From NCBI GenBank assembly GCA_963833135.1, contig CAWHWW010000010.1, forward strand, positions 16,822 through 80,821: a stretch of DNA of 64,000 bases. Reading direction: 5' to 3'. The notes under the pieces are model-generated. The model worked only from the letters and a program-made list of their open reading frames with translations, ran no database searches and was not told the origin of the DNA. Both the position numbers and the translations under genes were made by a program. The stretch comes from an uncultured cyanobacterium. Its GTDB lineage: Bacteria > Acidobacteriota > Vicinamibacteria > Vicinamibacterales > UBA2999. Shown here piece by piece: positions 17,398-63,800 of the stretch (within the stretch, counting starts at the first letter, position 1; each line of letters starts with the position of its first letter).

Positions 17398-17430
17398 CAA
17401 GCCCGCAAGCCCGTAGCCCGCAAGCCCGCG
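17398..17430. repeat. One-armed tandem array CAAGCCCG/TAGCCCG (complement of GGGCTTGC/GGGCTAC words)
   Basis: Read directly: CAAGCCCGCAAGCCCGTAGCCCGCAAGCCCGCG, between convergent stops 17393 (+) and 17437 (-). On the minus strand it reads (GGGCTTGC)-type G3N4-5 tracts. Confidence 0.7.
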
Positions 17431-40627: not shown

Positions 40628-40703
40628 GGGCTTGCGGGCTTGCGGACGACGGGCTTGCGGGTTGCGGACTTTCGTAAGCCCGTAGCCCGTAAGCCCGTAG
40701 CCC
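40628..40703. repeat. Hairpin of GGGCTTGC-type words versus AAGCCCGT/AGCCCGT words
   Basis: Read directly: GGGCTTGCGGGCTTGCGGACGACGGGCTTGCGGGTTGCGGAC-TTTCG-TAAGCCCGTAGCCCGTAAGCCCGTAGCCC. It starts 1 nt after the receptor stop and lies between convergent genes. Confidence 0.75.
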
Positions 40704-47374: not shown

Positions 47375-48194
47375 GTGCCCGAACTTCCGGAAGTTGAAAC
47401 CGTGCGGCGGATGCTCGAGCCTGCCATGAAAGGCTCGCGCTTCCGCCGGGTCATCGTCAATCGGCCGAACCTTCGCATCCCTTTTCCCGATCGATTCGCC
47501 GACCGCCTGCGCGGTGCGACGGCCGTCGCCGTCTCGAGGCGCGGCAAATATCTGATCGTCGAGTTGTCGTCCCGCGAGACGCTGATCATGCACCTCGGCA
47601 TGTCCGGATGGTTTCACGTCGCGCCGATTGGCGATCGCTCGCGTGACGCCGATCCGCACGACCACGTCGCCTTCGTCATGTCATCGGGCCAGACGGTGCT
47701 GTTCAACGATCCACGGCGCTTTGGCTTCATGGATCTGGCCGGGGAGGGGCGTCTGCGCGAGTACCCCTCGCTGAGCGCGATGGGGCCCGAACCGCTGTCG
47801 ACCGAGTTCGACGACGCTTCACTCGCGCGCGCCTGCAAAGGCAAGAAGGTGTCGCTCAAGGTCGCGCTCCTCGATCAACGCGTCGTCGCCGGCCTCGGCA
47901 ACATCTACGCGAGCGAGGCGCTGCATCACGCCCGGCTCTCGCCGCTCAGGAAGGCGTCGACGATCGCCACGGCCTCGGGCGCGCCGAAACGATCAGCGAC
48001 GCAGCTGGCGTCAGCGATCAAGGCCGTGCTGACGAGCGCTATCGGGCGGCGCGAGTCACCGTACCGATCCGCGCGCTTCAAGGTTTACGAACGTGAAGGA
48101 CAACCGTGCTCTGCGGCGCGGCTGCGGCGGAACGATCCGCCGGCTCACCCAGGCGGGACGGTCGACCTATTACTGTCCGAAATGCCAGCGTTGA
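47375..48194 (+). CDS. mutM: formamidopyrimidine-DNA glycosylase, frameshift in the zinc-finger region
   Basis: [51 protein letters not shown]. Hand-read C-terminus [23 protein letters not shown], stop at 48192-48194. Confidence 0.85.
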
Positions 48195-48250
48195 ACTGAA
48201 CATGCGGAGTGCTACGCTGCCCTTCGACTCACTTCCTGGAGGACTGCCGC

Positions 48251-48838
48251 ATGAAAGGCCTGGCCGAGCTCACCAAGACGACGCTCATCGGCGGACTGCT
48301 CGTCGTCCTGCCGATCTACGTTTCCATCCTGTTACTGGTCAAGACGCTGGCCGGCATCCTCGCGTTGCTGTCGCCGGTCACCGCGGCGGTCCCGGCCGGG
48401 GCGCAGTTCCGGCAGGTCATCGCGATCCTGATCGTGCTCGCCGTTTGCCTGGTGGCCGGGATCATTGTTCGCACCGGCCCCGGACTGCGGGCCAAGAGGA
48501 GGTTCGAGCGCAAGGTCCTCAAGAAGATCCCCGGGTATTCGCTGGTGCGGGGCATCACCGAACGGGTTTCCGGCGAAGACACCGAAGGCGCATTTCAGCC
48601 GGCGCTCGTGGAAATCGAGGACGCGCTCTCTCCCGGCTTCATCATCGAAGAGCTCGAGGACGGGCGCTACACCGTCCTCGTGCCGTCGGTGCCGACGCCT
48701 GCCGCAGGTGCCCTCTACATCCTCCCGCGGGAGCGTGTGCATCCGCTGGACGTGCCATTCACGCAGGCGGTGACGGTCATCTCCAAGTGGGGCGCGGGCG
48801 CGGGGGTGCTTGCGCGCGGCATATCGGTTCGATCGTGA
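48251..48838 (+). CDS. DUF502-like membrane protein
   Basis: ATG 48251. MKGLAELTKTTLIGGLLVVLPIYVSILLLVKTL. KKIPGYSLVRGI. AGALYILPRERVHPLDVPFTQAVTVISKWG. Frame intact. Confidence 0.6.
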   Translation: MKGLAELTKTTLIGGLLVVLPIYVSILLLVKTLAGILALLSPVTAAVPAGAQFRQVIAILIVLAVCLVAGIIVRTGPGLRAKRRFERKVLKKIPGYSLVRGITERVSGEDTEGAFQPALVEIEDALSPGFIIEELEDGRYTVLVPSVPTPAAGALYILPRERVHPLDVPFTQAVTVISKWGAGAGVLARGISVRS

Positions 48839-48895
48839 CGGCTCGAGTTGTAATCCCGGTTGGCCCCAAGCTCATCCGTGGTAGGGTTTCGCCCG

Positions 48896-49593
48896 ATGGG
48901 CACAACCCTCTCCGTCATTCTCCTGATCGCCATCGTGCTCGCGGCTGGATTGCTGCGCGATTCGTTTCGCACGAAAGCCGTCACGCGCTGGGGCAAGACA
49001 CATGGCTTCTCGTTCGTGCCGAAACCGGAACATGACAACGAACGCCTGATCGCGTGGGCCAAACGGTTTGCCACGACCAGCGCTTCACATTGGGGCATCG
49101 TGCTCCGCGGCGAAACAGCCGGCCTCGAAACAACAATCGCGGAACACGAAGAGAGGTTCGTCAAGAGCCCGGCCCGCTGGCACACATTGGCGGTCACGCG
49201 CGTGCCGGGTCTGAAAATGGATGCCGTGCGATTCACCCAAGCGGGTCGCAGGTGATTCGCGCCGTCACGGACGCGGTGACTGCGCCCGGTCGCGCCGTGC
49301 GCGACGCGCTGGGCATCGAAGTGACGGAGCGATCCGTCCATCGCGTCGGTCAAGGAAAGTGGGCTGTCGAAGGGTCGAACGACGACGCGCTCGCCTTCTG
49401 GTCGAGCGAGACGCAAGCGGCGGCGATCGACGCATGGCCGCACGACGCGGAGCTTGCCGCCGTCGACGACTACGTGCTGGTGAGAGTGCCCGGGCCCATC
49501 AACGCGGGGCGTCTCGACGATCTTCTCGCGAGCGCAGACGCCGCCCGTGCACTCTTTACCCAGGCGGCTGCGCGGATGCCCGTGACTCGATGA
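48896..49593 (+). CDS. hypothetical N-terminally membrane-anchored protein, one frameshift
   Basis: MGTTLSVILLIAIVLAAGLL, then soluble part. Continues in ORF 49054..49593 (WAVEGSNDDALAFWSSETQAAAIDAWPHDAELAAVDDYVLVRV). No family recognised. Confidence 0.35.
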
Positions 49594-49623
49594 TTCGTCG
49601 AAGATCGCCGGCGCGCCGGATCC

Positions 49624-51061
49624 TCACATTGTCTTGAGGAACTCGAGCAGCGCCTCGCGATCCGCCACGGACAATTGGTGACCGTAGGTGTGCCCACCGT
49701 TGCCATTGCCGCGATCGGACGTCTTGAAAAGGACGCCTTGTTTCTCGGCCTCTGGTCCGGACGAGACGAAACCCACGCCCTGGAAGTCGTAGACGTCGTA
49801 GGCGCGATAGAACGCCGCCGGCCGCGGGTCGAGCAGCAGGAGCGCGCGAAGCGTCGGCACCGAACCGTTGTGCAGATACGGTGCCCGCAGCCAGATGCCG
49901 TCGAGCGGCATGCCGGCGTAGCCGTTCGTCTTGCGGAAGTGCGAAAACCTCCAGGGCTTGCCCGTGCCGATGGTGTTCATCATCTTCGCCAGTTCCGGCG
50001 TAAAGGAATTCAGTCGCTCCGGATCGGTCCCGATCTCGGCGATGTCGATCGTCTGTCCCACCTTCGGCTGGCCGACGTCGTGACAGCTTGCACAGTGCTG
50101 CTGATAGAGCGGCCGTCCCGTGCTCGCCAGGGCGGCATTGATGCGGTTGGAAGGATACGAAGGCGGCTTCAGATCGAGAATCCAGTTGGCAATCCGATCG
50201 AGCGCCGCCAGGTCGATGGAGTGCTCCGTCGCGCCGGCGCCTATCGCCGCACTCTTGTTCCGCTCGTCGACCGAATCGTTGTTGCCATCCCAGTGCAGCC
50301 ATAATCCCTGGCGAATCCGCTGATTCCAGAGGGACGGCAGATCGGCGGTGCCGACGCTCGTATCGGAGGCGAAATTCGTCTCGGCCGAGAACATCTCCTT
50401 GTACGGATTGAACGTATCCACACGCCCCGGTCCCTGGGGCGGCCGCTTGTCGAACCAGGCGATGCGCGGGTCACGCTCACGAATGCCCTTCTGCGTGGCG
50501 TTAATCGCGAACAACCGGTAGGTGAGGCCATCGAGGAATCCGAACTCCGGATGCTTCTGCATGGCGGCGACGAGGGTATCGGCGTTGAACCTGGGATCGC
50601 TGGCACAGGCTGACAGGAACCGCGCATAGGCCTGGAGATCCATCTGGTGCGCGGGCATCCCGAGAACGATCTTCGGCGCGGCTCCCGGCGCCTCGCGATA
50701 CTGCGCCGACATGACAGGTCGCGCAGTTCAGTCCCACGCGCGGAACCCAGTCGTTGCTCTTGGACGCGCCCATCGGCAGGTCGCCCTTGGGATTGTCGTA
50801 GGTGAATCCGATGCGCTCGTAGCCGTTCCCAGGGCGATTGGGCAGCTTGTCGGCGAACACTTCGGGCAGCACTTTCCACAGCCAGTAGGGCACCCCGACG
50901 GTTCCCTCGGTCCCGATTGATCCGTACTTGAACTCGGTGGCGATGTCCGGAGTGGACTGGGCTGCCAGGCCAATCCATGCGCAGATCACAATCGCGAAGA
51001 CAATCTTGGTCACGATCCGCGGCGATCCACCGACGCGCGCGCCGTTCTCAACTCGTCTCAT
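49624..51061 (-). CDS. di-haem c-type cytochrome, cytochrome-c-peroxidase/MauG-superfamily-like, one frameshift near 50700
   Basis: Signal or anchor KIVFAIVICAWIGLAA. Two CXXCH sites: GLNCATCHVG (ORF 50501..51061) and QQHCASCHDVG. WLRAPYLHNGSVPTLRALL resembles the CCP-family motif. Confidence 0.6.
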
Positions 51062-51074
51062 CGCGTACTACTCC

Positions 51075-52337
51075 TTACGTTCGAGCGACCGCGGTTGCGA
51101 AGGCGTACGTGATGGCCTCGTTGGTCACGTCGCTATGGTCCTTGATGAGGCCGCCCGAGCCGTCAAGGTTGTTGATGACCTGGCCCTTGAAGTCGTACGG
51201 CGTTCCCGCGGCATTCAGCCGCGAGCTGGCAACTTCCGTCGTCCGCAGCGCTCCATTGCGGCCCAACCCGCCGAATTCGTCGCTTGCGTCGCCGATCGCC
51301 CTCGTGTTGTCGCCGGCGAGACGCGACATGACCGAGTAGGCCTTCCCGACGACGGTGTCCTGGGCGGAGAAGGTCGACAGGAACGGGCCCTTGACGACCT
51401 TTTGAACGATCACGTCGCGGAAAAATCCGGCGCTGCCGTGCCCGTTGTCCGAACTGAAGCCAAAGTGCGAGAACGCCGCCTCGAGCAACATCAGGGAATC
51501 AAGGGGAGTCTTCGGTGCTTCGGCGAGCGCCTTGGCGCACGCCGCCGCCAGGCGGCCGCCCAGGCTGTGTCCCACGACGTGGAGGCGAAGACTCGGCGAG
51601 CTGGCGCGCAGTGTTCGCACCGCTTTGGCGAGGCCCGTGGCGCCTACCGTTCCCGATCGCTCCTTCATCACGTACCACGTCGTCAGGTTCAGGAATTGTC
51701 CGACGCCGCCGGCGATCCTGCCGGCAACGTCGCCGATCCCGCGGGTGCCATCAGCAGGCGGACTCAATCGCGCAAGAATCTCGGAACCTGATCGCTGGCG
51801 GATCCGCGTCAGTCCCTCCGTCGCATCCGCGCCGGAAGCGTCGACCAACGACAACACCAGCTCGACGAATTCGTCTTGCGCTTGCGGATTCGTCTCGAGC
51901 GTGGGCAGAAGTGCGATCGCTTTATCCAGGTTACGGCGCTGCGCGGGCGTCGCGTTGTCGTCCTTGAACTCCTCGAGCTGCGCCTTCGCGTCGGCCAGCG
52001 TGGGCGAAGGATCGTGCAGTCCGCGTGTGCGGCCCGATCCCTCGTCGAAGTCCTCTCGAAACTGCTTCGACGGCCAGTAGACGCCGGCGAAGACAAACTG
52101 CCGGTTGGCCAGCGCGCTGAATTCCGGACGTGAGAGGTTCGCCCTGAATGTCTGCAAGAAACGCGTGTAGAGGTTCGTCGCGTCGTTCTCGTCGTTGCGA
52201 AAGCCGTGCGCGATGAAGACCACATCGGTGGCGGAACTCGCGCGCGCGGCCAGCGCCTCGAATTCCTGCCGCGACTGCAACGTTCCGTGATCATCAAATT
52301 TCAGTGGGAAGAAATCGAATCCGTCGATGGTCGGCAT
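51075..52337 (-). CDS. alpha/beta-hydrolase, DUF900/lipase-like serine esterase
   Basis: VVFIAHGFRNDENDA ... VFAGVYWPSK, and nucleophile elbow LHVVGHSLGGRLAA. Intact 420-aa ORF, 14 nt upstream of the di-haem cytochrome gene. Confidence 0.6.
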   Translation of the reverse strand: MPTIDGFDFFPLKFDDHGTLQSRQEFEALAARASSATDVVFIAHGFRNDENDATNLYTRFLQTFRANLSRPEFSALANRQFVFAGVYWPSKQFREDFDEGSGRTRGLHDPSPTLADAKAQLEEFKDDNATPAQRRNLDKAIALLPTLETNPQAQDEFVELVLSLVDASGADATEGLTRIRQRSGSEILARLSPPADGTRGIGDVAGRIAGGVGQFLNLTTWYVMKERSGTVGATGLAKAVRTLRASSPSLRLHVVGHSLGGRLAAACAKALAEAPKTPLDSLMLLEAAFSHFGFSSDNGHGSAGFFRDVIVQKVVKGPFLSTFSAQDTVVGKAYSVMSRLAGDNTRAIGDASDEFGGLGRNGALRTTEVASSRLNAAGTPYDFKGQVINNLDGSGGLIKDHSDVTNEAITYAFATAVART

Positions 52338-52500
52338 ACGTTCCTCGCTCGCGCCTGCACCAGCTCATCCGGAACGCGACGGCGCAACCGCCATCCTAAC
52401 CGGACTCCGCAACCGTGTCTGCACTGTGATTGAATGGGCCGGGCAGCATCATGCTGAGGTGGCTGGGCCCGCGCCATGAGCGGCCTGACAAGGAGAGGGC

Positions 52501-53469
52501 ATGACCTTCAAGACACCGGCGCTGGCCGAAGAGGCTATCGACCCGGACGAGGCGGCGGTCGCGACGGCGTTCGTCGAGTTTCTCAAGGCGACAAGCACGA
52601 AGCATCACCCCACCGGTACGGTCCCGCGATTCAACCAGGGCCGCGCTGCCGGGTGTGTCGAGGCGGAGTTCATCGTGCCTGACGGCTTGCCGCAGGATCT
52701 TCGTGTCGGCCTCTTCGCTCACCCTCGCACCTACAAGGCGCGCATTCGATTCGCGCACGCCTCATCGGAGTCGGACACGGAGCGCGACGTTCGCGGCATG
52801 TCGATCAAGGTTGCAGGCGTGGGTGGCGAGAATCTGACCCCGGGTGTGGCGGACCACGACTTCATCCTGAACAGTCACCCGGTGATGATGGTGGGGCACA
52901 CCAAGGCCTTTCTCGACTTGCTCAAGGCGGTGGAGGAGGGCGGTGCCGCGCAAGGACTGTTCTTCGTCACACATCCGCGCGCCGCGGCCGTGGCGCTGGC
53001 CTCGCGGCAGCATGCCACCAGTCACCTCGAGATTCCCTACTGGAGCACGACGCCCTACCTCTTCGGGCCGGGCCGGGCGGTCAAATACAGCGTGCGTCCC
53101 GCTTCGCCTCGAAAGACGCCGCTGCCGGACCCGTTGACCGACAACTACTTGCGGGAGCGCCTGGTCGCCCATCTTGCGCGGGAAGAAGCTCGTTTCGAGT
53201 TTCTCGTGCAGTTTCAGACCGACGGCCGGAAGATGCCGATCGAAGACGCGAGCGTGGAATGGAAGGAGGACGACTCCGCGTTCCGCGCGGTCGCCGAAAT
53301 TCGCATCCCCGTCCAAACGCTCGAAGGTCCGAGCGCCGCGTCCTGCGAGCAGCTTTCGTTCAATCCCTGGCACGCCCCGGCGGATCACCGCCCGCTCGGC
53401 GACTTCAACCGCGCGCGCCGTGAGATCTATCGCGCGATGGCGGCTTTTCGTGGGACGCCACGGGCCTGA
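52501..53469 (+). CDS. small catalase-fold haem protein (mini-catalase, y4iL/srpA/AOS-like clade; not a canonical catalase)
   Basis: AAGGAGAGGG RBS. RDVRGMSIKV (cf. catalase D.RGFA.KF). DHDFILNSHPVMMV (cf. D.vgNN.PVFF). Proximal-Tyr-like NRARREIYRAMAAFR. The catalase VHAKG position reads FNQGR by eye. Intact 322 aa. Confidence 0.6.
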   Translation: MTFKTPALAEEAIDPDEAAVATAFVEFLKATSTKHHPTGTVPRFNQGRAAGCVEAEFIVPDGLPQDLRVGLFAHPRTYKARIRFAHASSESDTERDVRGMSIKVAGVGGENLTPGVADHDFILNSHPVMMVGHTKAFLDLLKAVEEGGAAQGLFFVTHPRAAAVALASRQHATSHLEIPYWSTTPYLFGPGRAVKYSVRPASPRKTPLPDPLTDNYLRERLVAHLAREEARFEFLVQFQTDGRKMPIEDASVEWKEDDSAFRAVAEIRIPVQTLEGPSAASCEQLSFNPWHAPADHRPLGDFNRARREIYRAMAAFRGTPRA

Positions 53470-53493
53470 GTCCAAGGAGATCGAATCACTCCC

Positions 53494-54462
53494 ATGAGAA
53501 AAGCACTGATCGTCGGCATCAACTACTACTCACAGATTCCCCGGCTGTATGGCTGCGTGAACGACGCCCATGCGGTGAAAAAAACCCTGGAGCGGAACGG
53601 TGACGGCACGATCAACTTCACCGCCAACCTCTTCACGGCCGACAGCGACGCCGACGCCATCAGCCGCAGCACTCTGAAGCGCCTCGTTCGCGAGCTCTTT
53701 GCCGAAGATCACGAGGTGGCATTGTTGTACTTCGCCGGTCACGGGCACGTGGAGCAAACCGGCGGTTATCTGTGCAGCAGCGATTCCAGTGAGGGAGACG
53801 ACCTCTCGCTCGCCGACGTGATGACGTTTGCCAATGACTCGCCGGCCAAGAACAAGGTGATATTTCTCGACAGCTGCCATTCCGGAATCGCCGGCACGCC
53901 GGCCGGTCAAAAGGCAGCCGAAGTGGCCGAGGGTGTGACCATCCTGACGGCGTCGACCAAGGAACAGTACGCGACCGAGAAGAATGGCAGCGGCGTCTTC
54001 ACGTCGCTACTCGTGGATGCCTTGAACGGCGGAGCATGCGACCTGGTCGGCACAGTTACGCCGGGCGCCGTGTATGCGCACATCGATCAGTCGCTCGGTC
54101 CGTGGGAGCAGCGGCCGGTGTTCAAGACGAATGTGAAGGAGTTCGTTTCGCTGAGGCGCGTGCCCGCGCCCATTCCACTGGAATATCTGCTTCGGCTCAC
54201 CGAGTTCTTCCCGAAGCCGGGGATGAAGTTCGATCTCGATCCGAGTTTTGAGCCCGAGCCGAACGGAAGGCCGCCCGGCGTCGCTCCTCCGGACCCTGAA
54301 AACACCGCGAAGTTCGACGTGCTTCGACAGTTCAACCGCGTCAACCTCCTCGTGCCCGTTGGCGCGCCCCACATGTGGCATGCGGCCATGGAATCAAAGA
54401 GCTGCAAGCTGACGGCGCTCGGCGAGCATTACCGTCGCCTGGTTGAACGGAATCGGATTTGA
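53494..54462 (+). CDS. caspase-fold (peptidase C14) protease with unrecognised ~150-aa C-terminal domain
   Basis: [12 protein letters not shown]...LYGCVNDA. His in LLYFAGHGH. Cys in [13 protein letters not shown]. Intact 322 aa, 25 nt after the mini-catalase stop. Confidence 0.8.
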
Positions 54463-54475
54463 CAGAGCATAAGGA

Positions 54476-54545
54476 GGGCTTGCGGGCTTGCGGGCTACGG
54501 GCTTGCGCGCTGCGGGCTACGGGCTTGCGGGTCACGGGCTTGGGG
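54476..54545. repeat. One-armed tandem array of GGGCTTGC/GGGCTAC words: nine G3+ tracts spaced 3-11 nt (mostly 4-5) on the + (sense) strand
   Basis: Read directly: GGGCTTGCGGGCTTGCGGGCTACGGGCTTGCGCGCTGCGGGCTACGGGCTTGCGGGTCACGGGCTTGGGG. It is preceded by AAGGAGG (54471-54477) and is in frame with the downstream ORF (table ORF 54488..55069). Confidence 0.8.
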
Positions 54546-54562
54546 TCGCCGGAGACCGCGCG

Positions 54563-55069
54563 ATGACACGCATCGGGATTACCGGACATCAACGGTTGGA
54601 CGATGAGACGACATGGCAATGGGTGAGCATCGCCTTGGCTGACGCCGTATCACGGTCACCTCGTCCTTTCGCAGGCCTGAGCTCGCTCGCGATTGGCGCC
54701 GATCAGCTTTTTGCGTCGATCGTGCTCGATCAAGACGGTGCGCTCGAGGTCGTCGTGCCGTTTCCTGACTACCGGAGCCGTTTCGCCGACGAGCAGGATG
54801 CGAAGCGCTACGACGCCTTGTTGTCGCGCGCGTCACGTGTCGAAGTCCTGCCGGCACAAGCGTCCGACGAGAAGGCCTACCTGGCGGCCGGAAAACGAAT
54901 CGTCGATCGCAGCAACGAAATGTTTGCGGTGTGGAATGGTCAGCCAGCCGCCGACGTCGGCGGAACCGGCGATATCGTGCAGTACGCGCGAGAGCGTCGG
55001 ACGCCTCTTGACCGTGTTCAATCCCGTGACCCGGACGGTGCTCCTCCCGGACCGCCGGTTGGCGAATGA
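54563..55069 (+). CDS. stand-alone SLOG/YpsA-like Rossmann-fold protein (putative nucleotide-derivative binding)
   Basis: MTRIGITGHQRL, LSSLAIGADQLFASIVL, EVVVPFPDYRSRF, MFAVWNGQPAADVGGTGDIVQYARERRTPL. This pattern matches my memory of YpsA/DprA-type SLOG motifs (G.TG..., G.A.G.D, vwdG...GGT..v.yA). Alternative TTG start at 54488 inside the repeat. Confidence 0.45.
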   Translation: MTRIGITGHQRLDDETTWQWVSIALADAVSRSPRPFAGLSSLAIGADQLFASIVLDQDGALEVVVPFPDYRSRFADEQDAKRYDALLSRASRVEVLPAQASDEKAYLAAGKRIVDRSNEMFAVWNGQPAADVGGTGDIVQYARERRTPLDRVQSRDPDGAPPGPPVGE

Positions 55070-55091
55070 TTCTCTCTGAGAGAAACCTGTC

Positions 55092-56505
55092 ATGCCTGAA
55101 CTGAGGAAAGTCTTCATCAGCCACTCTCACAAGGACGAACCACTGGCCTCGGCGTTCCGTGACACGCTGAAAAACATCTTCAACAACGTCGACGTCGCTT
55201 TTTCGTCTGACAAGACCGTTGGAGGAGGACCCTCGTCCGGGTCGAACTGGCTCGAGTGGATACACACTCGCATGCGCGACTGTCAGGAGTCACTGCTGTT
55301 GCTGACGCCGTATTCGATACGGCAGCCCTGGCCGATGTGGGAGGCGGGCGCCGTCGGCGGGATGGCGATCATCAATCCGGATCCGGCTGCCGCCCCGTTG
55401 AAGGTGGTGACGCCGATTCGCTTCAACATCGCGCAGGAAGCGCTGCCCGGCCCTTTCGTCGTCACGCAGGCAATCGACGGGCGGGATCCGGAATCGCTCC
55501 GAAAGCTGCTCGGCGATCTGATGAAGCGCTATGACTACGCGGGAACGCCGCAGGCGACCTATAGAGCCGTGCTGAACGATCAGATTCCTTCACTGGCCCA
55601 GACGATCAAAGGCTGGCTCGAAAACTCTCCGCCCATGGTGACCGAGGGGATGGTGATGGAGTGGTGCAGCCGGCTCGATGAACTGCGCGACCAGCGGCGC
55701 AGCTCGGAGGTCCGCTACCTGCACCACTGGATCCGCCTGATGTACGAGGGCCCGCAACAGGAGGAAGCGGACCGGCAGACCTGGAGCCAGACGCCGCGCC
55801 GGGAAACGTGGGACCTGCGCCTGCATTTGCGGCTGGCGCAGAACTACACGATCGCGCAACAGTACAAGGAAGCCATCGAGCAGTATTTGCTCGCGGCGCA
55901 ACTCGCGCCACTCGACGCGTTCGTCCTGCACCGTCTCGCCCAGGTCTATCTCGACGTCGCGGATGCGGACGCTTCGCGGCGGACGATCGATCAAGATCCT
56001 GAACCTCGACAAGGACGCCTTGAAATGGAATGCCGAGATCGCCGGCCTCGAGGGCCGTTATTGGAAGGACCAGGGCCGGAGGCATCAGGCCGAGAGCAAG
56101 CCCCAACAAGCGCAGGAGTCGTTCAGGAAATCGCTGCAGGCGTACGAGGCGGCAATGAACATCGACGGAGTCAAAGTTGATTTCTACATGGCCGACAACG
56201 TCGGGCAGTTGAGCCTGACGCTCGGCGACATCCCGGCTGCCAAGAGAGCCTACGAGCGCGCGCGCGTCGCTCTCGAGAATGTGACCCGCGAGACTGAGAG
56301 CGTGTGGAGCCTTGCGACGCGTGCGACCGCCGCACTGGTGCTGGAGGTTGATGACAAAGAGGCGCTCGACTACCTTGCCCGCATTCGGGAGTTCGAGCCG
56401 ACCGATTCCCAGAAGGCCAGCATCTCCCGGGGGCTGCAGCTGATCAAAAAGGCGCTCGACAAGACGGACGCCGACTATCGGCGCTGGGTCGGTCTGCTCG
56501 GATAG
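55092..56505 (+). CDS. TIR-domain protein fused to a TPR/DUF4071-like helical repeat module, one frameshift near 55985
   Basis: TIR: RKVFISHSHKDEPLASAFRDTL...SLLLLTPYSIRQPWPMWEAGA. Repeats: LRLAQNYTIAQQYKEAIEQYLLAAQLAP, VLHRLAQVYLDV, AEIAGLEGRYWKDQG (resembles the DUF4071 GR.YKD signature), SFRKSLQAYEAAM. Confidence 0.7.
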
Positions 56506-56506
56506 A

Positions 56507-56536
56507 CGGCGCCCGCTACCGTGCGGGCTCCTGCCG
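56507..56536. terminator. Short GC hairpin between convergent operons (GCCCGC-TACCGT-GCGGGC)
   Basis: Read directly at 56511-56528, with flanking CGGC/GCCG extension. It sits in the 33-nt spacer between stops 56505 (+) and 56539 (-). No clear U-tract. Confidence 0.35.
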
Positions 56537-56538
56537 AT

Positions 56539-57608
56539 TCAGTCGCGCTCGCGGGGCATGATCTTGGCTTTCTTTTTTCTGGCCTGCCGCGCGGCGCGGC
56601 GAACCGGTTTCCGGACGGCCCGCGCGCGTGTCGAGGGAGGCGCGATCGTTCGCAGCCGCGGCGCCACACGGGCGGTGGTATCGGCCGCCGGATCCAATAC
56701 GTAGCGGGGCAGGATCCCCTGGGTATAGAGCAACCCGTAGACCAGCGCCTGATTGGTCTTGTGGCCCGGCTTGAACACGTTGTTCTCGAGCCACTCCTTC
56801 GCGTGTGCGAGGCCCCGTCCGAGATCGATGTCGACATCGGCCGAGTGCACCATCGACGCGGGGTCCCCGCCAGGCAACGGCATTGCGTCCTTGGAGAACG
56901 ACAGTTGAACGTTTCCTTCGGCGAACCGCGTGTGCTTCCAGCTGTCGGGATGCGCGGGCAGATCGGCCAGGTCACCGCCGGGGGCGCCATGTCCCGGCGC
57001 GCCGGCAAACTCGCTTGCGCGCGGCATCCGCGCCTTGAGCGCGGCGTATCGAAAAACACGAACGCCCGATCGACGGCGACGTGACGCACGCCGCGCACGA
57101 ATCCGAGGAGCGGGGCCCCATCGAGAACGGTTTCGCGCAGCTTGGCCTCGATGTTCAGAAAGGCCATCTTGGCGGCCGACGTCCAGCGCACGAAAGGCCG
57201 CAGCGTCGATGCCGCTTTTTGGCGCCACAAACGGCGACGCGATCTGCTGCGAGACGATCGAAGCCGTTCGGGAGATCGGTCGTTCCGGGTGCATCGGGCA
57301 CCAGCATCAGCCGCAATACCAGGTCGTCGCCTTCGACGTTCTCCGGAACCCGAATGAAGTCCCGGCGCCGGATCAGTTGCCACGCCGGCCGATGTTGAGG
57401 CGCCGAAAACGTGATGCCGTACACCTGTCCGGCATCGAAGGGCAGCGCGAGCCGGAGCTCGAGCGTCGATTCGTCGGTCTTTCCCTGGAAGAGGAGACGC
57501 GGACCGCCGGAGGCGAAGACGTCGGAGACGCGGATGCTCAGCGGCACCGCCGCGCCAGAGATTTCGATCGCAGCCGTAGAGGATGACGGTCAGCCGTTTC
57601 TCGGTCAC
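56539..57608 (-). CDS. unrecognised protein, last gene of the gasdermin operon, basic C-terminal tail, at least 3 frameshifts
   Basis: GTG 57608 lies 5 nt after GGAGG, which follows the gasdermin TAA. Pieces: PLSIRVSDVFASGGPRLLFQGKTDESTLELRLALPFDAGQVYGITFSAP; AAKMAFLNIEAKLRETVLDGAPLLGFVRGVRHVAVDRAFVFFDT; HSADVDIDLGRGLAHAKEWLENNVFKPGHKTNQALVYGLLYTQGILPRYVLDP; tail RKPVRRAARQARKKKAKI. Confidence 0.5.
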
Positions 57609-57618
57609 CGTCGCCTCC

Positions 57619-58428
57619 TTACTGCGCCACGCGCACGAAGGCGCCGCGAGTCTCGAGAAAGACCGGGCGGCGGGCGGCCCCGCCGGCCGGAGGAAAGGCC
57701 CGCGCCGCCGCTTCTCCGGCGCCCAGTTGCTGCGTCGTCAGGAACTGACCGGATTCGTCGAACACGAGTTGCACGGCCTGAAACGCGAACGCCACCGGTA
57801 CGGCGCCCTCGAAGGCGATTTTCGATTCCATTCCGCTGGCCGTGCCGACGTTGACGCTGCCGCCGACGGCTTGCTGAATGACCGGCACGTCGACCTTGAC
57901 CGTGGCGCCGTTCTCGCCCTGCGCCGCGACGACGATCTTCTTGGTCTTCAAGACCGACGTCACGACATAGACCTCGTCATCGAGCAGCTTCTCCAGCGTG
58001 CCGGCCGGAATGTGCGGGCTGATCCGTCCCGCCTTGACGAATTTTTCGACCGCAAGGACATCGACGACGTCCTCCATCACCGCGGCGTATTGGAAGGTCA
58101 CGGTGCGCGCCTTGTTGAAGGCGACGTCGAGACCAAGCTTGCCGCCGCCGAGCGCCGAGATGAACGCACCGAGGATACTCAACCCGATCGCGACGTTGAC
58201 CTTGCTGGTTTCCTTCCCCTCGATGTCGATGCCCGGATTTCCGTCCCGCCGCACATCAGGTGCGGCGATCTCGCCGGCGTCGACGAGATCCGGCACCATG
58301 CCGAGACGCGTCAGATCCTTCCCGTCACGGTGCATCAGCTCGAGCGGTTGCGCCGATGCGCGCGGAAAACGAAACACACTGAACCCGAAGCTGCGCAGGA
58401 ACGTGATTGACTGATCAGGTCTCGACAT
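57619..58428 (-). CDS. bacterial gasdermin (bGSDM) homolog
   Basis: Intact 269-aa ORF from ATG 58428. FLRSFGFSVFRFPRASAQPLELMHRDGKDLTRLG, VAIGLSILGAFISALGGGKLGLDVAF, VPVIQQAVGGSVNVG, IAFEGAVPVAFAFQAVQLVFDESGQF match the bGSDM consensus as I remember it (GLSILG..I.A.GG.KLGLD; VP.IQ..VGG.V.V; EG.VP..F.FQAV.L). Followed by a ~35-aa tail. It lies 8 nt downstream of a caspase-like gene. Confidence 0.75.
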   Translation of the reverse strand: MSRPDQSITFLRSFGFSVFRFPRASAQPLELMHRDGKDLTRLGMVPDLVDAGEIAAPDVRRDGNPGIDIEGKETSKVNVAIGLSILGAFISALGGGKLGLDVAFNKARTVTFQYAAVMEDVVDVLAVEKFVKAGRISPHIPAGTLEKLLDDEVYVVTSVLKTKKIVVAAQGENGATVKVDVPVIQQAVGGSVNVGTASGMESKIAFEGAVPVAFAFQAVQLVFDESGQFLTTQQLGAGEAAARAFPPAGGAARRPVFLETRGAFVRVAQ

Positions 58429-58436
58429 GTGACACC

Positions 58437-59279
58437 TCAGGCGGAAAACAGCGGCGTTTCGAACCGGGCGGTCCGGCCTTCGAGCTGCGGCACCTGCTCG
58501 AACTTCCTGGTCTTGAGTACGACAGCAGCGCGATCGTGCAGCTGTTTGTAGGTGAGCGCGGCCTTGCCCTTGCGCATGGCCTCGACGAGCGCGAAGGTGA
58601 GCGCGCCGTTGTAGCGGCCGTTGATGAAGGCGTCGGCCGAGGTCTGCGTGTCGCGGCACCCGGTGATGAGCACTTCGGGAAGGTCCGCCTTCACGATGTC
58701 CTTGGTCTTGCGGGCCGCCCGCGAGCGAGCGCCGGAGCTCGCTCGTGACCTTTCTCGGCAGACTCCGTCCGGATTCCACCGCTTTCAGGCTCGCAGGGAC
58801 TCGGGAGGTAGCGTTGCCTGACGGGCGCGTCGGGCGGCAGGAAGGCGCGCGTGTTGGTGCCCGAATGGCAGCAGTCCATGATGACCGTGAGGTTGACGCC
58901 GTCTTTCATCCCGTCGAACGTGGTGCGCAGCCAGTCGTCGCGGAGCGGATCGTCCCAGTCAAGATCGGTCGGGCAGAGGATCTCGTCGCGGCCGTCGGCC
59001 TCGTCGCTGTTGTCGTCGGGCACGTTCGAACCGTGGCCGGAGTAATGAAGGACGGCGACATCGCCCTTCTTCGAGTCGCGCAGCAAGCGCCTTGATTCCG
59101 GCCTCTATCGCCTTCTTCGTTGCCTCGAAGTCGGTGAGCACGGCGATGTCGCTCTTCTTGAAGCCGTAACACTCGACGAGCGCGGAGCTCAGGTCCTCCA
59201 CGTCGTTGACGCACCCCCGGAGATCGGCGCCGTCTATCCGGTATTTGTTGATTCCAATCAGCAACGCTCGCTTAGCCAT
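58437..59279 (-). CDS. caspase-fold (peptidase C14) protease, 2 frameshifts
   Basis: MAKRALLIGINKYRIDGADLRGCVNDV. His in VAVLHYSGHGS. Cys in LTVIMDCCHSGT. C-terminus VLITGCRDTQTSADAFINGRYNGALTFALVEAM. Pieces lie in ORFs 58959.., 58691.., 58437... Confidence 0.8.
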
Positions 59280-61182
59280 TCACACCCTCCCACTCCAACG
59301 GAATGCCGTAACCAGCTGGTCATCGGCGACGGAATCTGATTTGCGCCGGATCGGTCAGCAGGGCGCCCACGCCCTTCGTCGTCACCGTCGAACGGATCAA
59401 GCTCGCTGAGTGAACCGAACGAAAGCCCGGCGCGCTCTTCGATGGTTGCGATCCGTGTCTGCGAGGTCTTGTGCTTCCCGAAGACGAACTCCTCGTCGCG
59501 CAGAAAATCTTCCTGCGACATCGTGTAGCCGGTCGCACACAGCTCCCTGGTCTCGTCGTGGATGAAGGCGATGACTTTCCAGAACGAGCGTGGAATCAGG
59601 ACGCCGTCACGGATCGGATCGTCGGGCATCAGGAACGGTCCCGTCATGACGGAGATGCGCATGTCATCGGACCGCGCGTTGTCGAGCGCGTAGCTCTCGA
59701 GCGCGAGCCAGATGCCGCCGTTGAACGGCTGCATCTGGGGCACGGTGTTCGTCACGTGCATCGAGTCGCTGTTGCCGAGCGCCGCCTCGTCGGGATCGCC
59801 CCAGACCGGGTCTTCGCGACGCGTCATGTGGCCGCGCGAGAACTTCGGCTCGCTCCCATAGCACTCGTCCTTGATTTGCTGCCTGACGGGAATGCGAGGA
59901 TCGAGGCGCCACGAAGGACGCTTGAACCGGCGAGGCGTTGCGCCGTCGATGTTGCCGGCAGCTGAAGATACACAGACGCCGGCTGCGGCTCATCACCACC
60001 GAGAAGTGCTGATACTTGAGCTCCGATTCCTGAGCACCATTCCAGGGGAATGTGAGGACGTCGGCCGCATTGTTCACCAGCGGGCAGTGGCACATCCACT
60101 CCGACAAACCGCGGGTCATACCCCTTGCGCCCGATGTAATCCTCGGGCACGCCTTCGACGAACACCTCGTAACCGGCAGGCGTCCCGGCGTCCGGTGTCG
60201 GCGTGACGATGGCGTGAGGAGTGACGGGACCCTGGGGCGGGCGGCTCGAGGGCTTTCCGGGCTTCGGATGTCGCACTTGTTCGAGGCGCTCCGCAACGAC
60301 CGTCATCGGTACGGCGTAGTTGGTTTCGAGAAAGCGGCCCGCGAAGTGCAATCCGACGGCGTGCCCGGTCCCCAGATCGAGCACGACCGAACCCGAGTTC
60401 CCTCCAAGCGTCGAACAGTCGTGGAGCAGGACATCCGTTTTCGCCTCCGTCACTTGACCCGGAGCCAGGCGCTTCTTGTCGAACACGTCGCCGAAGATCG
60501 ACTGCACCAACTGCTCGTCGGGCGCTCGGCTGTCCCTGGCGGGATATCCGATCACGGCCACCTGCTGCGCGGCGTGAGGCGGTGACACCGAGAGCGGGAT
60601 CGGAGGCGCGAGCGCCTGACCGCGCGATTCGCCCACGCGCAGGAGCGCGAAGTCCGGGCCATCGTCGTCTTCGATGTGCAGGATCTCGACGATCGGGAAC
60701 GAGAGGCGTTCCGGCCGGCCCACTTCTTCGAGGAAGTCGATGGACACGCCGGATGGTGATCCGTCTTCCTTCTTGAACATGAAACGATCGCGCCCTCGTT
60801 GCCCGAACTCACGCGCCACGTGACGATTCGTCACGATGGTGTCCTTCTCCACGAGCCAGCCCGTGCCGACGTACGGCACGCCCGGACGACCGGTGACGTT
60901 GATGCGTCCGACGGCACCCGCCGCGCGCTGCAGCTGCGCGCTCGAGGCCTGAAGACGGGTGCGCCAGACCTCGCTTTCGCTTTCCCTGAATTCCAGTTGT
61001 GCCGCGCCGCCGACGACCGCCAGAACCGGCCGTCCCACGCGAAGCACGATATTTCGAAGGCTCTGACCCGCATCGCGAAGCGAGCGGGTACCGCTGATCT
61101 GTCGGAGTTCGTCGGCGAGCAGCCGATCAGCCGTGTCGAGGGTCGAGATGAGTTGCTTCAGCCATTCGTCGAGGTCTCCCAT
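59258..61182 (-). CDS. fusion protein: N-terminal helical region + trypsin-like serine protease + DNA/RNA non-specific (NucA/EndoG, beta-beta-alpha-Me) endonuclease; at least 2 frameshifts
   Basis: Protease triad: TIVTNRHVAREF (H), GPDFALLRV (D), CSTLGGNSGSVVLD (S). Nuclease: KYQHFSVVMSRSRRLCIFS, hand-read AAGNIDGATPRRFKRPSWRLDPRI...EPKFSRGHMTRREDPVWG, NTVPQMQPFNGGIWLALESYAL. The stop is uncertain (59258 or ~59320). Confidence 0.75.
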
Positions 61183-61202
61183 CGCAGCCTTGCCAGAAGC
61201 GC

Positions 61203-62526
61203 CTATTGAAAGGTCTGCGGACGATAGACGGACAGAATCTGCTCGATCATCGCTTCACGCGACGGGTAGCGGCTTTCGTCGTAGCAGCCGAGCGGGTTCT
61301 CCGGTGCATTCACCAGGCAGCGGTTGCAGTACGTGCACGGGTTCTCCGGCCGGCCGATCCCGTTCGCGAACTGCTGCACGAGATCGTTGTTGGCGATCAG
61401 CGGCCGCGCAATGGTCACCGCGTCGCAGTCGCCACGAGCGATGGCGTCTTCGATGATCGCGGCCGTCTGGAATCCGCCGGTGCACAGCACCGGAATGCTG
61501 CCCACCGCCTGCTTGATCGCGCGGGCATCGTGGAGATTGAGTCCTTCAATCTTGTCCTTCGGACCGCGCGCGTTTTCCCATCGTTTCCTGAACAGTTCCC
61601 CGGTGATCCGCCCGCTGAACAAGATGTAGTTTCTGAGCGCCAGCACGCCGCTCGAGATCAGGCTGTCGTACGTCTTTCGCAGCTCGTCCACCGGCAGATC
61701 GCCGGCCGGATTCTTCGGGTGTGGAAACGAGCTGCCCGGACGACACGTGGATGGCGTCCACGCCGTCTTCCTTCAGCCACTGACAGACCTGGACGGAATC
61801 CTCCACGGTGTTGCCGGGCTTCTCGTCCGACAGCATCGCGTCGTTGAATTCCGTCGCGCTGATCTTCATCTGCAGGTGGAAGTCCCGCCCCACGCGCGCG
61901 CGGATTGCCTGGACGATCTCGCGCACGAACCGTGCGCGGTTGGCGAGCACGCCGCCGTATTCGTCGGTGCGATCGTTGATTGCGGAGCTGAGAAACTGCG
62001 TGATCAAGTAGCCGTTCGCGCCGTGCAGCTCCACGCCGTCGAGGCCCGCCTCGCGCGCGCGTCGTGCACCCTCGGCGAAGGATTGGATCGCTTCCTTGAT
62101 CTCGGCGAGCGTCATCGCTTCGCATTCGAAGCCATGTAGCGGATCACGTTTCCCCGTCGAGCTGAGACCCTTCGGATAGTCGAAGGTCGCGATGTCGCGT
62201 TGCCGGCCGCCATGGCTGAGTTGGAGGATGTACTTGCAGTCGTGTTCGTGCACGGCGTTGCCCAGCGCACGCCAGAACGGAATGCGATCGTCGCTCACGA
62301 TCGTCGCGTAATTCGGCAGGATGCGCCCGCGCTGATGCACCGGCACGAACGACGACACGATGGCGCCGACGCCTCCGCGCGCGAACTTGACTTCCCAGTT
62401 GATGCGCGCCTGCGCGCCAGTGCCATCGTAGTTGTCGAAGCGGCCCGCGATGTTCGATCGCAGAATGCGATTCTTCACCGTCAGATTGCGGAAGCTCAGG
62501 GGCGAAAAAATGCGTTCGTATGGCAT
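61203..62526 (-). CDS. Old Yellow Enzyme-family NAD(P)H:flavin oxidoreductase, frameshifted
   Basis: ATG 62526. MPYERIFSPLSFRNLTVKNRILRSNI, ILQLSHGGRQ, GLDGVELHGANGYLITQFLSSAINDRTDEYGG, DAVTIARPLIANNDLV. C-terminal piece in ORF 61203..61691. Its stop is only 20 nt upstream of the protease-nuclease start. Confidence 0.85.
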
Positions 62527-62636
62527 GGCGGCGCGAATTATATGCGCAAAAGGCGGGTGCACGAATTTCGATCTGTGGCATAGTCTGCGATTCTGCACGC
62601 TGATCATCGAGCACGTGGTTCTGCTGCGAGGGATGA

Positions 62637-63800
62637 ATGACGGACAAGCACCTGAAGGGACCGTGGTACAGGCAGCCGAAGTTGACCGCGATGCCGCAAC
62701 TCGTCGAAATTCGCAACCAGCTCAGGCGTGAGAATCTGCACGATACGGAAGAATCGCCACTTGAAAAGCGAGTTGATACTGCTGAGCCGGATGCCGCGCT
62801 GCGGGAAGAGCGCACCGTCGATGGCTCGTACAACGATCTCGAGCTCCACGCCAAGGCGAAGCTCATCAACTCAGCGCTCATGGCCAAGATCCATACCGTC
62901 GAGTGGACTCCGGCCATCCTGCCGCACCCGGTCACCCAGCTCGCAATGCACGCAAATTGGTACGGCCTGGCGGGCGACGAGCTGCAGGAAGTCCTGAAGT
63001 TTCTAAACGACAACGAGATTCTCGGAGGCATCGTCGGGTCGAAATACGATCACCACACGGCTCCCTACGCGTTCACCGAAGAGTTCGTATCCGTGTACCG
63101 GATGCACCCGCTCATTCCCGACGACGTGGCCATCAGGTCGTTGGACAACGATGCCGTCGCGGAAACGATCGAGCTGCCCGAGCTGTCCGGCCGTAAGGCT
63201 CCCGGCGTCGTGAACCGGATAGGCATGTCCGATTTGTTCTACTCGTTCGGACGGTGTCACCCCGGCGCCATCACCCTGCACAACTACCCGAAGCATCTGC
63301 AGAATCTCAGTCGCGACAACGGTGAACATCTCGACCTCGCCGCCGTAGACATCTTCAGAGATCGGGAACGTGGCGTGCCCCGGTACAACCAGTTCCGCCG
63401 GCTCTTTCACAAGGACCCGGTGAAGTCGTTCGAGGAGCTGACGGACAACCCGGTGTGGCGCGAAGAAATTCGACGCGTCTACGGAAACGATGTGGAGAAG
63501 GTCGACTTGATGACCGGGCTCTATGCCGAACCGCTGCCGCCCGGATTCGGTTTTAGCGATACGGCGTTCCGCGTCTTCGTCCTCATGGCGTCACGACGCC
63601 TGAAGAGCGACCGCTTCTTTACGAACGATTATCGCGCCGAGGTATATACCGAATTCGGACTGAACTACCTGAAGGACAACTCAATGTTAACGGTCTTGAA
63701 GCGACACCATCCGGATTTGGCGCCTGCCCTCCGGGGTGTCGACAATGCCTTCAAGCCATGGCGTAAGGTCGAAGCAGGGGGTGCACATGTCGCGTCGTAA
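62637..63800 (+). CDS. alpha-dioxygenase/COX-type (animal haem peroxidase superfamily) fatty-acid haem dioxygenase homolog, apparently lacking ~230 aa of the N-terminal catalytic half
   Basis: LINSALMAKIHTVEWTPAIL, HHTAPYAFTEEFVSVYRMHPLIPD (cf. plant alpha-DOX PYSLTEEFVSVYRMH.LLP with catalytic Tyr and proximal His), AAVDIFRDRERGVPRYNQFRR, LMASRRLKSDRFFT. The N-terminal LRRENLHDT...RTVDGSYNDLE joins directly to LHAKAKLIN. Confidence 0.7.
   Translation: MTDKHLKGPWYRQPKLTAMPQLVEIRNQLRRENLHDTEESPLEKRVDTAEPDAALREERTVDGSYNDLELHAKAKLINSALMAKIHTVEWTPAILPHPVTQLAMHANWYGLAGDELQEVLKFLNDNEILGGIVGSKYDHHTAPYAFTEEFVSVYRMHPLIPDDVAIRSLDNDAVAETIELPELSGRKAPGVVNRIGMSDLFYSFGRCHPGAITLHNYPKHLQNLSRDNGEHLDLAAVDIFRDRERGVPRYNQFRRLFHKDPVKSFEELTDNPVWREEIRRVYGNDVEKVDLMTGLYAEPLPPGFGFSDTAFRVFVLMASRRLKSDRFFTNDYRAEVYTEFGLNYLKDNSMLTVLKRHHPDLAPALRGVDNAFKPWRKVEAGGAHVAS

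Follow-up and report, generated by a model that had tools for sequence, protein, structure and literature searches.

A probable type IV Thoeris-family cassette with caspase, SLOG and TIR-TPR-S genes in a variable defence hotspot

Rousset et al. (bioRxiv 10.1101/2024.10.24.620036; Science 2025) gave the name type IV Thoeris to the two-gene TIR-caspase systems of E. coli 328 and Pseudomonas sp. 1-7. In these systems, the TIR protein makes N7-cyclic ADP-ribose (N7-cADPR), after which a caspase-like protease with arginine specificity degrades proteins indiscriminately. The C-terminal domain of the caspase, ThsE, is proposed as the signal-binding site, the mutants PsTIR E79Q and PsCaspase C129A are described, and the MacSyFinder rule for the system consists of a TIR and a caspase in one operon, with at most one gene between them (Rousset et al., bioRxiv 10.1101/2024.10.24.620036). 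The locus compared here with type IV Thoeris occupies positions 52,501 to 56,505 of a 64,000-nucleotide stretch of contig CAWHWW010000010.1 (assembly GCA_963833135.1; hereafter the window), deposited as an uncultured cyanobacterium and placed by GTDB in the Acidobacteriota. It holds four genes on the same strand: g1, encoding a catalase-related haem protein; g2, a caspase-like protease; g3, a stand-alone SLOG protein; and g4, a TIR domain fused to TPR-S repeats.

A first-pass annotation of the window had identified these four genes largely correctly, and had taken them for a novel four-gene conflict operon containing an undescribed pairing of a TIR with a caspase-like protease. The anti-phage conflict locus stands, in the form of a caspase and a TIR of the type IV Thoeris family. 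The pairing, however, is that of type IV Thoeris itself, of whose caspases g2 is a full-length homologue, and the unit comprises three genes rather than four. We consider it probable that g2, g3 and g4 together make up an abortive-infection cassette of three genes that belongs to the type IV Thoeris family and is located in a variable defence hotspot downstream of g1. The data show which domains are present, to which family the caspase belongs, that the catalytic residues are conserved and that the genes are linked across phyla. TIR-caspase immunity is already known; the SLOG accessory and the TIR-TPR-S signal maker are the additions.

The g2 protein presents a C14 domain at approximately residues 1-205 (Pfam Peptidase_C14, E = 1.8e-20), followed by a conserved C-terminal domain at approximately residues 206-322. 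His83 and Cys128 are invariant across homologues, which bears out the His/Cys dyad that had been annotated for this protease. Its AlphaFold2 (AF2) model has a predicted local distance difference test (pLDDT) score of 82, the top PDB matches are MALT1, caspase, paracaspase and metacaspase folds, and residues 206-322 constitute an extra, confidently folded domain. A tblastn search of plasmids yielded 49 near-full-length homologues, the closest with 58-66% identity over 100% of the query. On E. coli pCREC-591_1 (L093), on pBBta01 of Bradyrhizobium sp. BTAi1 (L094) and on a P. aeruginosa plasmid (L095), a TIR gene of 123-124 amino acids (aa) is followed by the caspase about 10 nucleotides (nt) on; the C-terminal domain of g2 alone has 51-62% identity to caspases of this type. 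The catalytic Cys is residue 129 in E. coli, 130 in P. aeruginosa and 128 in the window, and the catalytic Glu of the short TIR is residue 79 in P. aeruginosa and 80 in E. coli, so that the numbering in the window agrees with the positions of PsTIR E79Q and PsCaspase C129A.

When compared with type IV Thoeris as described, g2 thus has the C14 His/Cys dyad and the C-terminal domain of the effector family, and the operon rule holds, with one gene (g3) between g2 and the catalytic-Glu TIR of g4; the defence-island context is also shared. At the level of sequence comparison, these values strongly indicate that g2 belongs to the ThsE family of type IV Thoeris effectors. The locus differs in that no short stand-alone ThsB-type TIR lies directly upstream of the caspase: whereas known ThsB proteins have about 124 aa and are encoded upstream, the TIR of the window is a 470-aa TIR_2/TPR-S fusion, encoded downstream and belonging to another TIR clade, and an extra SLOG gene is inserted between caspase and TIR.

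In the SLOG-less plasmid operons, a gene of 93-97 aa with a weak RyR-domain match (E of about 1e-3) is found right after the caspase (L094:5006-5299 and L095:5002-5283), and on the E. coli plasmid the region past the caspase (L093, about 5063-5167) resembles part of the caspase C-terminal domain. A 2026 Nucleic Acids Research (NAR) paper reports an uncharacterised extra gene past the caspase in Pycsar-Thoeris IV hybrids, and the RyR-like small gene may be the uncharacterised 'fifth gene' of PMC13069673.

After correction of a one-nucleotide frame change (discussed below), g4 matches TIR_2 over residues 7-139 with 34.8 bits against a cut-off of 28, and TPR-S with 29.4 bits against a cut-off of 27.6. 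The TIR with its Glu in a WPMWEAG context had been recognised in the first-pass annotation, but the DUF4071-like repeats named there found no match in the Pfam scan and are TPR-S repeats instead. Glu84, within WPMWEAG, is aligned with the catalytic Glu79/80 of the short TIRs. PADLOC returned ThsB-like TIR matches for g4, with no match for g3 and no ThsA at the locus. No other TIR is encoded in the 64-kb window. In comparison with two TIR hidden Markov models (HMMs), the g4 TIR domain presents E = 1e-19 with c20, built on 'extra' downstream TIRs that often lie past a SLOG gene, versus E = 2e-3 with c3, which represents the short ThsB type found upstream. When metagenomes were scanned with g4 orthologues, the same cassette was recovered in L106, L112 and L119; in L111 (88% g4 identity), g1 and the caspase are followed directly by the TIR-TPR gene, without SLOG. 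The same scan recovered solo g4 homologues, 63-71% identical, amid housekeeping genes. The TPR-S repeats are of the class found in ThsI of type VIII Thoeris (BcTpr, a glycosidase with TPR-S), for which TPR-S is suggested to perceive cADPR (Yirmiya et al.); in g4, however, they are fused to the TIR itself and not to a CMP-hydrolase-like effector.

The g3 protein finds no match in Pfam, NCBIfam, PADLOC or PDB sequence profiles, and Pfam YpsA (PF06908) fails to match it even at E up to 1; the relatives P0457 and P0369 have weak, below-cut-off YpsA matches. Hence, among the profile assignments expected for the locus, TIR_2 and Peptidase_C14 are confirmed, SLOG and DUF4071 are not, and Catalase, expected for g1, stays below its cut-off. 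The AF2 model of g3, computed with 64 homologues, reaches a pLDDT of 94.2, and its best Foldseek match is YpsA (2nx2; E = 1.6e-9, template modelling (TM) score 0.73), followed by DprA, ShosA, the ThsA SLOG and LOG enzymes. The alignments present the invariant motifs G-I-T-G-H9, G45-A46-D47 and G133-G134-T135. A Rossmannoid fold, the GxD/E signature of the YpsA clade (Brzozowski et al. 2019, PMC6459960) and a glycine-rich loop are therefore all found in g3, which we assign to the SLOG/YpsA-like proteins by predicted structure only; the earlier identification as a stand-alone YpsA-like SLOG protein is supported by AF2 and Foldseek.

Three described SLOG proteins are close enough to g3 to be compared with it. 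YpsA/DUF1273 of B. subtilis is the best structural match, both GxD/E (as G45-A46-D47) and the glycine-rich loop are kept, and some g3 homologues are annotated as DUF1273 or 'SLOG family protein'; yet the context of g3 is TIR and caspase rather than gpsB, and a significant Pfam YpsA match is missing. ThsA of type I Thoeris, a SIR2-SLOG protein that senses 3'cADPR, likewise associates a SLOG fold with a TIR, and its SLOG matches g3 (7uxs, E = 4e-5). However, g3 is structurally nearer to YpsA/DprA (TM 0.73) than to the ThsA SLOG (TM 0.45), its 171 aa hold SLOG only, without a SIR2, Macro or transmembrane effector domain, and the effector of the window, a protease, carries a putative sensor domain itself. 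In agreement with this, PADLOC ThsA profiles give no match at the locus, which lacks the SIR2-fused SLOG of type I Thoeris. In Shosta, ShosA is a SLOG protein that restrains a toxic effector partner. This DprA-like SLOG antitoxin (8zva) matches g3 structurally with E = 4e-6, although it is about twice as long as g3 and the window locus has no phosphoribosyltransferase (PRTase) toxin partner.

The distribution of g3 was studied by scanning 185,579 species genomes, in which more than 570 relatives were found. The best 80 of them, which are not a random sample, were fetched, and 85 non-redundant g3 loci were submitted to our own open reading frame (ORF) and HMM analysis, whose TIR HMMs and ORF calls were bootstrapped and are crude. 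In this set, a g2-type caspase with both domains lies immediately upstream of g3 in 44 of 85 loci, often with overlapping stop and start codons, and in 34 of these 44 a TIR can be recognised no more than 3 kb away. The commonest layout consists of a short TIR (about 125 aa), a caspase (about 320 aa) and a SLOG protein (about 160 aa), sometimes with further TIRs. According to a Pfam scan of downstream ORFs, a TIR is directly downstream of g3 in only about 12 of 81 loci; the usual TIR is therefore the one found upstream of the caspase. The loci come from Acidobacteriota, Actinomycetota, Dehalococcoides, Armatimonadota, Cyanobacteria and one Bathyarchaeia metagenome-assembled genome, and the trio of TIR, caspase and SLOG is annotated in Agrobacterium pTiCFBP5877 (a Ti plasmid) and B. 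subtilis pBS72. The order seen in the window, caspase-SLOG-TIR/TPR, recurs in L001-L003, L106, L112 and L119; L065, with a g4 identity of only 34%, likewise keeps caspase, TIR-TPR and SLOG genes together.

Only 8 records among approximately 50 full-length plasmid caspase homologues have a g3 match, and for most of the caspases that accompany SLOG, identity to g2 is only 33-46%. These values indicate that SLOG has been gained, lost or shuffled repeatedly, and its absence from L111 and from most plasmid systems indicates that g3 is dispensable. A profile search of 1.84 billion representative proteins returned 388 g3-family clusters at 50% identity (E <= 1e-30), most of them stand-alone. The fusions include SLOG-TIR-WD40, TPR-SLOG, STAND-SLOG, SLOG-8xMP and SLOG-DUF4231, where 8xMP and DUF4231 are membrane effector domains, a pattern that fits a domain binding or processing TIR-derived nucleotides. 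On the expectation that phages might carry an enzyme degrading the signal as an anti-defence measure, viral contigs were also searched for relatives of g3; only 2 were found among 2.9 million. None of the papers in the literature collection that was searched reports a SLOG accessory in type IV Thoeris, although earlier computational work may have mentioned TIR-SLOG-caspase neighbourhoods.

Other contexts of the g3 family were noted along the way. In actinomycetes, the family also occurs without caspase, paired with a regulator of helix-turn-helix and TPR domains as a two-gene module (L099:6739-8471; L042 and others). A conserved Streptomyces locus (L048-L092) has a g3-family gene with trypsin/MreB upstream and radical SAM-acetyltransferase downstream, and a TIR_2 protein of 440-470 aa is encoded about 4 kb downstream on the same strand. 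In Dehalococcoides mccartyi, a TIR-caspase-SLOG-TIR array (L010:6141-9152) adjoins DUF2188, MarR-like, resolvase and type IIG restriction-modification genes; DUF2188 appears among the putative Thoeris effectors of Yirmiya et al. Finally, P0381 joins a g3-like SLOG to a haem oxygenase domain of the MpaB/Lcp (rubber-oxygenase) type.

In the mechanism proposed for the cassette, what the signal is, what triggers the system and what SLOG does are inferred. The g4 protein would sense infection via its repeat region, and its TIR would convert NAD+ to a signal of the cyclic ADP-ribose type (probably N7-cADPR or something closely related), TIR-TPR-S thereby taking the place of the short ThsB as sensor and signal maker. 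As suggested by its family, the C-terminal domain of g2 would bind this signal, and the activated caspase would cleave cellular proteins promiscuously and stop phage replication, as experiments have shown for the systems from E. coli 328 and Pseudomonas sp. 1-7. The SLOG protein would be a frequent, dispensable accessory handling the same nucleotide. Most likely it modulates the response: it could buffer or turn over the signal, or gate the caspase with which it is co-translated, such that firing would require a threshold to be exceeded. That it is a second receptor is less likely. It is a tentative proposal, possible rather than probable, that a free YpsA-like SLOG is a dedicated TIR-signalling regulator new to Thoeris (a remover or buffer of a cADPR-type signal, or a checkpoint subunit of the caspase), accompanied by a TIR-TPR-S that replaces ThsB. 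A signal-removing SLOG could act as an off-switch or threshold setter, like ring nucleases in type III CRISPR.

Several points weigh against reading the three genes as a type IV Thoeris-family cassette. Both g3 and g4 are frameshifted in the window. The family placement of g2, although strongly indicated, is drawn from plasmid operons with the same architecture and from residue numbering. The g4 TIR falls outside the short ThsB clade, and its signal may differ from N7-cADPR because it belongs to the clade of 'extra' downstream TIRs; given the solo homologues, g4 may also be able to act alone. The linkage counts come from crude bootstrapped TIR HMMs and ORF calls on the best 80 of more than 570 loci, and SLOG is only a putative modulator.

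The role assigned to SLOG and the unity of the cassette are where the alternatives lie. SLOG could be an obligatory receptor, the TIR signal being bound by free SLOG, which would then activate the caspase in trans; the first-pass annotation had similarly cast SLOG as the signal sensor, with the protease as candidate effector. It is true that SLOG senses the signal in ThsA of type I Thoeris, whose SLOG is among the structural matches of g3, that g3-like SLOGs fused to membrane effector domains present a sensor-effector arrangement (P0372 and P0486), and that caspase and SLOG genes are often translationally coupled. Nonetheless, g2 retains the putative N7-cADPR-binding domain, at the identity given above to SLOG-less two-gene operons of a type shown to work alone, and the caspase goes without SLOG in L111 and in all but 8 of the approximately 50 plasmid homologues, which makes this explanation unlikely. 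It is quite unlikely, too, that g4 is an independent single-gene TIR-TPR defence, i.e., an NAD+-depleting effector with its own sensor, while the caspase-SLOG pair responds to something else or is orphaned. The absence of another TIR in the window to serve the caspase argues against it, as do a g3-g4 gap of 9-12 nt and an adjacency kept in at least 8 contigs and in the 34%-identity lineage, even though solo homologues of g4 stand between cytochrome oxidase, dipeptidase, kinase and glycosidase genes, and a TIR-TPR-S could be a responder if TPR-S perceives cADPR as suggested for ThsI (Yirmiya et al.).

The four-gene operon of the first-pass annotation, with the catalase-related haem enzyme as a functional first component (e.g., in handling reactive oxygen species (ROS) or a lipid-derived cue), would be in keeping with the 24-nt gap between g1 and g2 on the same strand and with the adjacency kept in L002 and L111. 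A preprint ties a TIR/TPR system to ROS homeostasis, and B. subtilis YpsA is reported as protective against oxidative stress. However, while TIR, SLOG and caspase do co-occur elsewhere, a g1 homologue is present in only 1 of 85 non-redundant g3 loci, the adjacency of g1 to the cassette is limited to the closest relatives, g1 relatives elsewhere keep their flanks and carry other cargo, and the family, annotated as 'catalase family protein', is found widely in contexts other than defence. The four-gene reading is largely refuted by these comparative data and appears extremely improbable. The remaining alternative is a decaying pseudogene remnant, in which the g3 and g4 frameshifts would be real and the system non-functional in this organism. 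Two 1-nt insertions in two of the three cassette genes are in its favour, but equivalent frameshifts in fpg, in the old yellow enzyme (OYE) gene, in the cytochrome c gene and in most genes of the neighbouring operon are typical of assembly error, and for g3 and g4 the frames past each shift remain open and conserved, with intact orthologues in L001-L003. Decay is thus very unlikely, and the reading as a type IV Thoeris-family cassette is retained.

The frame changes were mapped by tblastn against the syntenic relative L002, whose g1-g4 proteins have 79-89% amino-acid identity to those of the window. One frame change is found in g3 (54993-55009) and one in g4 (about 55993). Removing 1 nt near 54994-54996 yields a g3 of 171 aa, the length of the intact orthologues; removing 1 nt near 55993-55995 yields a g4 of 470 aa, versus 469 aa in the intact orthologues, in place of two overlapping ORFs (55092-56180 and 55963-56505). 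In comparison with L002, 1-nt frame changes are also present in fpg (47375-48199), in the RoxA-like cytochrome c gene (49624-51061) and in OYE (61206-62526), and the neighbouring operon is shifted in its C14 (58437-59279) and trypsin-nuclease (59258-61182) genes, with only the gasdermin gene unshifted there. Frameshifts relative to intact L002 orthologues thus span positions 47375-62526, housekeeping genes included. Because similar frame changes strike both housekeeping genes and the neighbouring operon, the insertions in g3 and g4 most likely reflect errors of assembly rather than decay. The window resembles an error-prone assembly, possibly a long-read one, and ORF-based readings anywhere in it need frameshift-tolerant comparison.

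The features of the locus are presented in Table 1. With g3 ending at 55079 after correction, the gap to g4 is 12 nt instead of the 22 nt first reported; the other spacings hold, at 24 nt between g1 and g2 (25 had been counted) and 100 nt between g2 and g3 (54463-54562). The start of g3 at the ATG of 54563 agrees with the N-termini of more than 900 homologues (M-x-R-I-G-I-T-G-H). A promoter and terminator scan of 52300-56700 gave nothing informative. The G-rich repeat reported in the g2-g3 spacer is present, but it is not a regulatory element specific to the operon: further copies lie in two other intergenic sites, at 17400-17427 and 40628-40696, just past stop codons (units GGGCTTGCGGGCT), and the same spacer in L002 has 39 nt and no repeat. 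It is a dispersed intergenic element resembling repetitive extragenic palindromic (REP) sequences. The 40.6-kb copy, an inverted pair, has the potential to fold into a long hairpin, and the repeats may serve this genome as REP-like or terminator elements.

Table 1. Positions in the window of the cassette, its flanking gene, the spacer repeat and the convergent operon.
Feature	Positions	Strand	Basis and remarks
g1, catalase-related haem protein, 322 aa	52501..53469	+	ORF intact; flank gene outside cassette
g2, ThsE-type caspase-like protease, 322 aa	53494..54462	+	ORF intact; Peptidase_C14, homology to TIR-adjacent plasmid caspases
g3, stand-alone YpsA-like SLOG protein, 171 aa corrected	54563..55079	+	Alignments, AF2, Foldseek, frameshift mapping
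g4, TIR_2 + TPR-S fusion, 470 aa corrected	55092..56505	+	Pfam; frameshift mapping
G-rich tandem repeat in g2-g3 spacer	54476..54545	no strand	Units GGGCTTGC/GGGCTAC
Convergent gasdermin operon	56539..61182	-	tblastn of L002 proteins; Pfam labels of L001/L002 genes

The catalase relation of g1 stands but is weak: Pfam Catalase is matched with E = 0.028 and 14 bits against a cut-off of 25, the best PDB match is coral allene oxide synthase (E = 0.11), and homologues with 31-37% identity are annotated 'catalase family protein'. The reported absence of the distal His fits an alignment made by eye, in which 120 g1 orthologues have an invariant Asn45 instead of His in the segment corresponding to the canonical distal-His motif. 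The conserved R306 and Y310 fit a proximal Tyr haem ligand, an inference from sequence and not from structural alignment.

In three g1 relatives with 66-75% identity, the flanks are kept and the cargo differs. L102 carries a CHAT-TPR-S protein, L104 carries TPR-S, patatin and DUF5995 genes, and L105 carries VanY, C14 and trypsin-nuclease genes, whereas the window and L002 carry the Thoeris cassette and the gasdermin operon. Upstream, a RoxA-like cytochrome c gene is found in L102 and L104 and a gene of about 420 aa in L102 and L105; OYE and An_peroxidase genes form the far flank beyond the cargo in L104 and L105. By this comparison, the interval 52501-62900, from g1 to OYE/An_peroxidase, is a variable defence hotspot, of which g1 is a conserved flank gene and not a cassette member, and the flank genes look like oxylipin or peroxide metabolism.

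Three further observations concern this region. A DUF5995 gene is present in L001, L002 and L104 and missing from the window. In P0234, a g1-like catalase-related protein is fused to an animal-haem-peroxidase domain, which may be compared with the RoxA-like, catalase-related and An_peroxidase flanks of the hotspot. The 420-aa hydrolase encoded upstream in the window was compared with the PGAP1-like gene found on the upstream side in L003, and the two are not homologous.

The gasdermin operon consists of genes for a 368-aa protein, a bacterial gasdermin (about 57628-58428), a C14 protease and a trypsin-Endonuclease_NS fusion. It does adjoin the tail of the cassette, as the first-pass annotation had pointed out, but the functional link implied there finds no support: a gasdermin is present at 2 of 92 g3 loci, both in near relatives, and the adjacency is by this count lineage-specific. 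As in bacterial gasdermin-protease systems, the operon has its own C14 protease; it is, however, separate from the cassette and on the other strand, and nothing ties g2 to gasdermin cleavage. In L105 (8981-13457), a VanY/M15 peptidase occupies the gasdermin slot, and the trypsin-Endonuclease_NS fusion recalls nuclease-protease pairs (PMC12799240).

The locus is not a new kind of system. Type IV Thoeris joins TIR signalling to caspase-type proteases, both of them hallmarks of innate immunity in animals, and a widespread accessory SLOG gene offers a handle on how a promiscuous protease would be silenced and its signal terminated; the accessory is present in tractable strains, on B. subtilis pBS72 and the Agrobacterium Ti plasmid. 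The TIR-TPR-S fusion suggests an alternative coupling of infection sensing to signal synthesis, and the locus illustrates a chromosomal hotspot in which the same flanks hold Thoeris, gasdermin, CHAT or patatin cargo depending on the relative.

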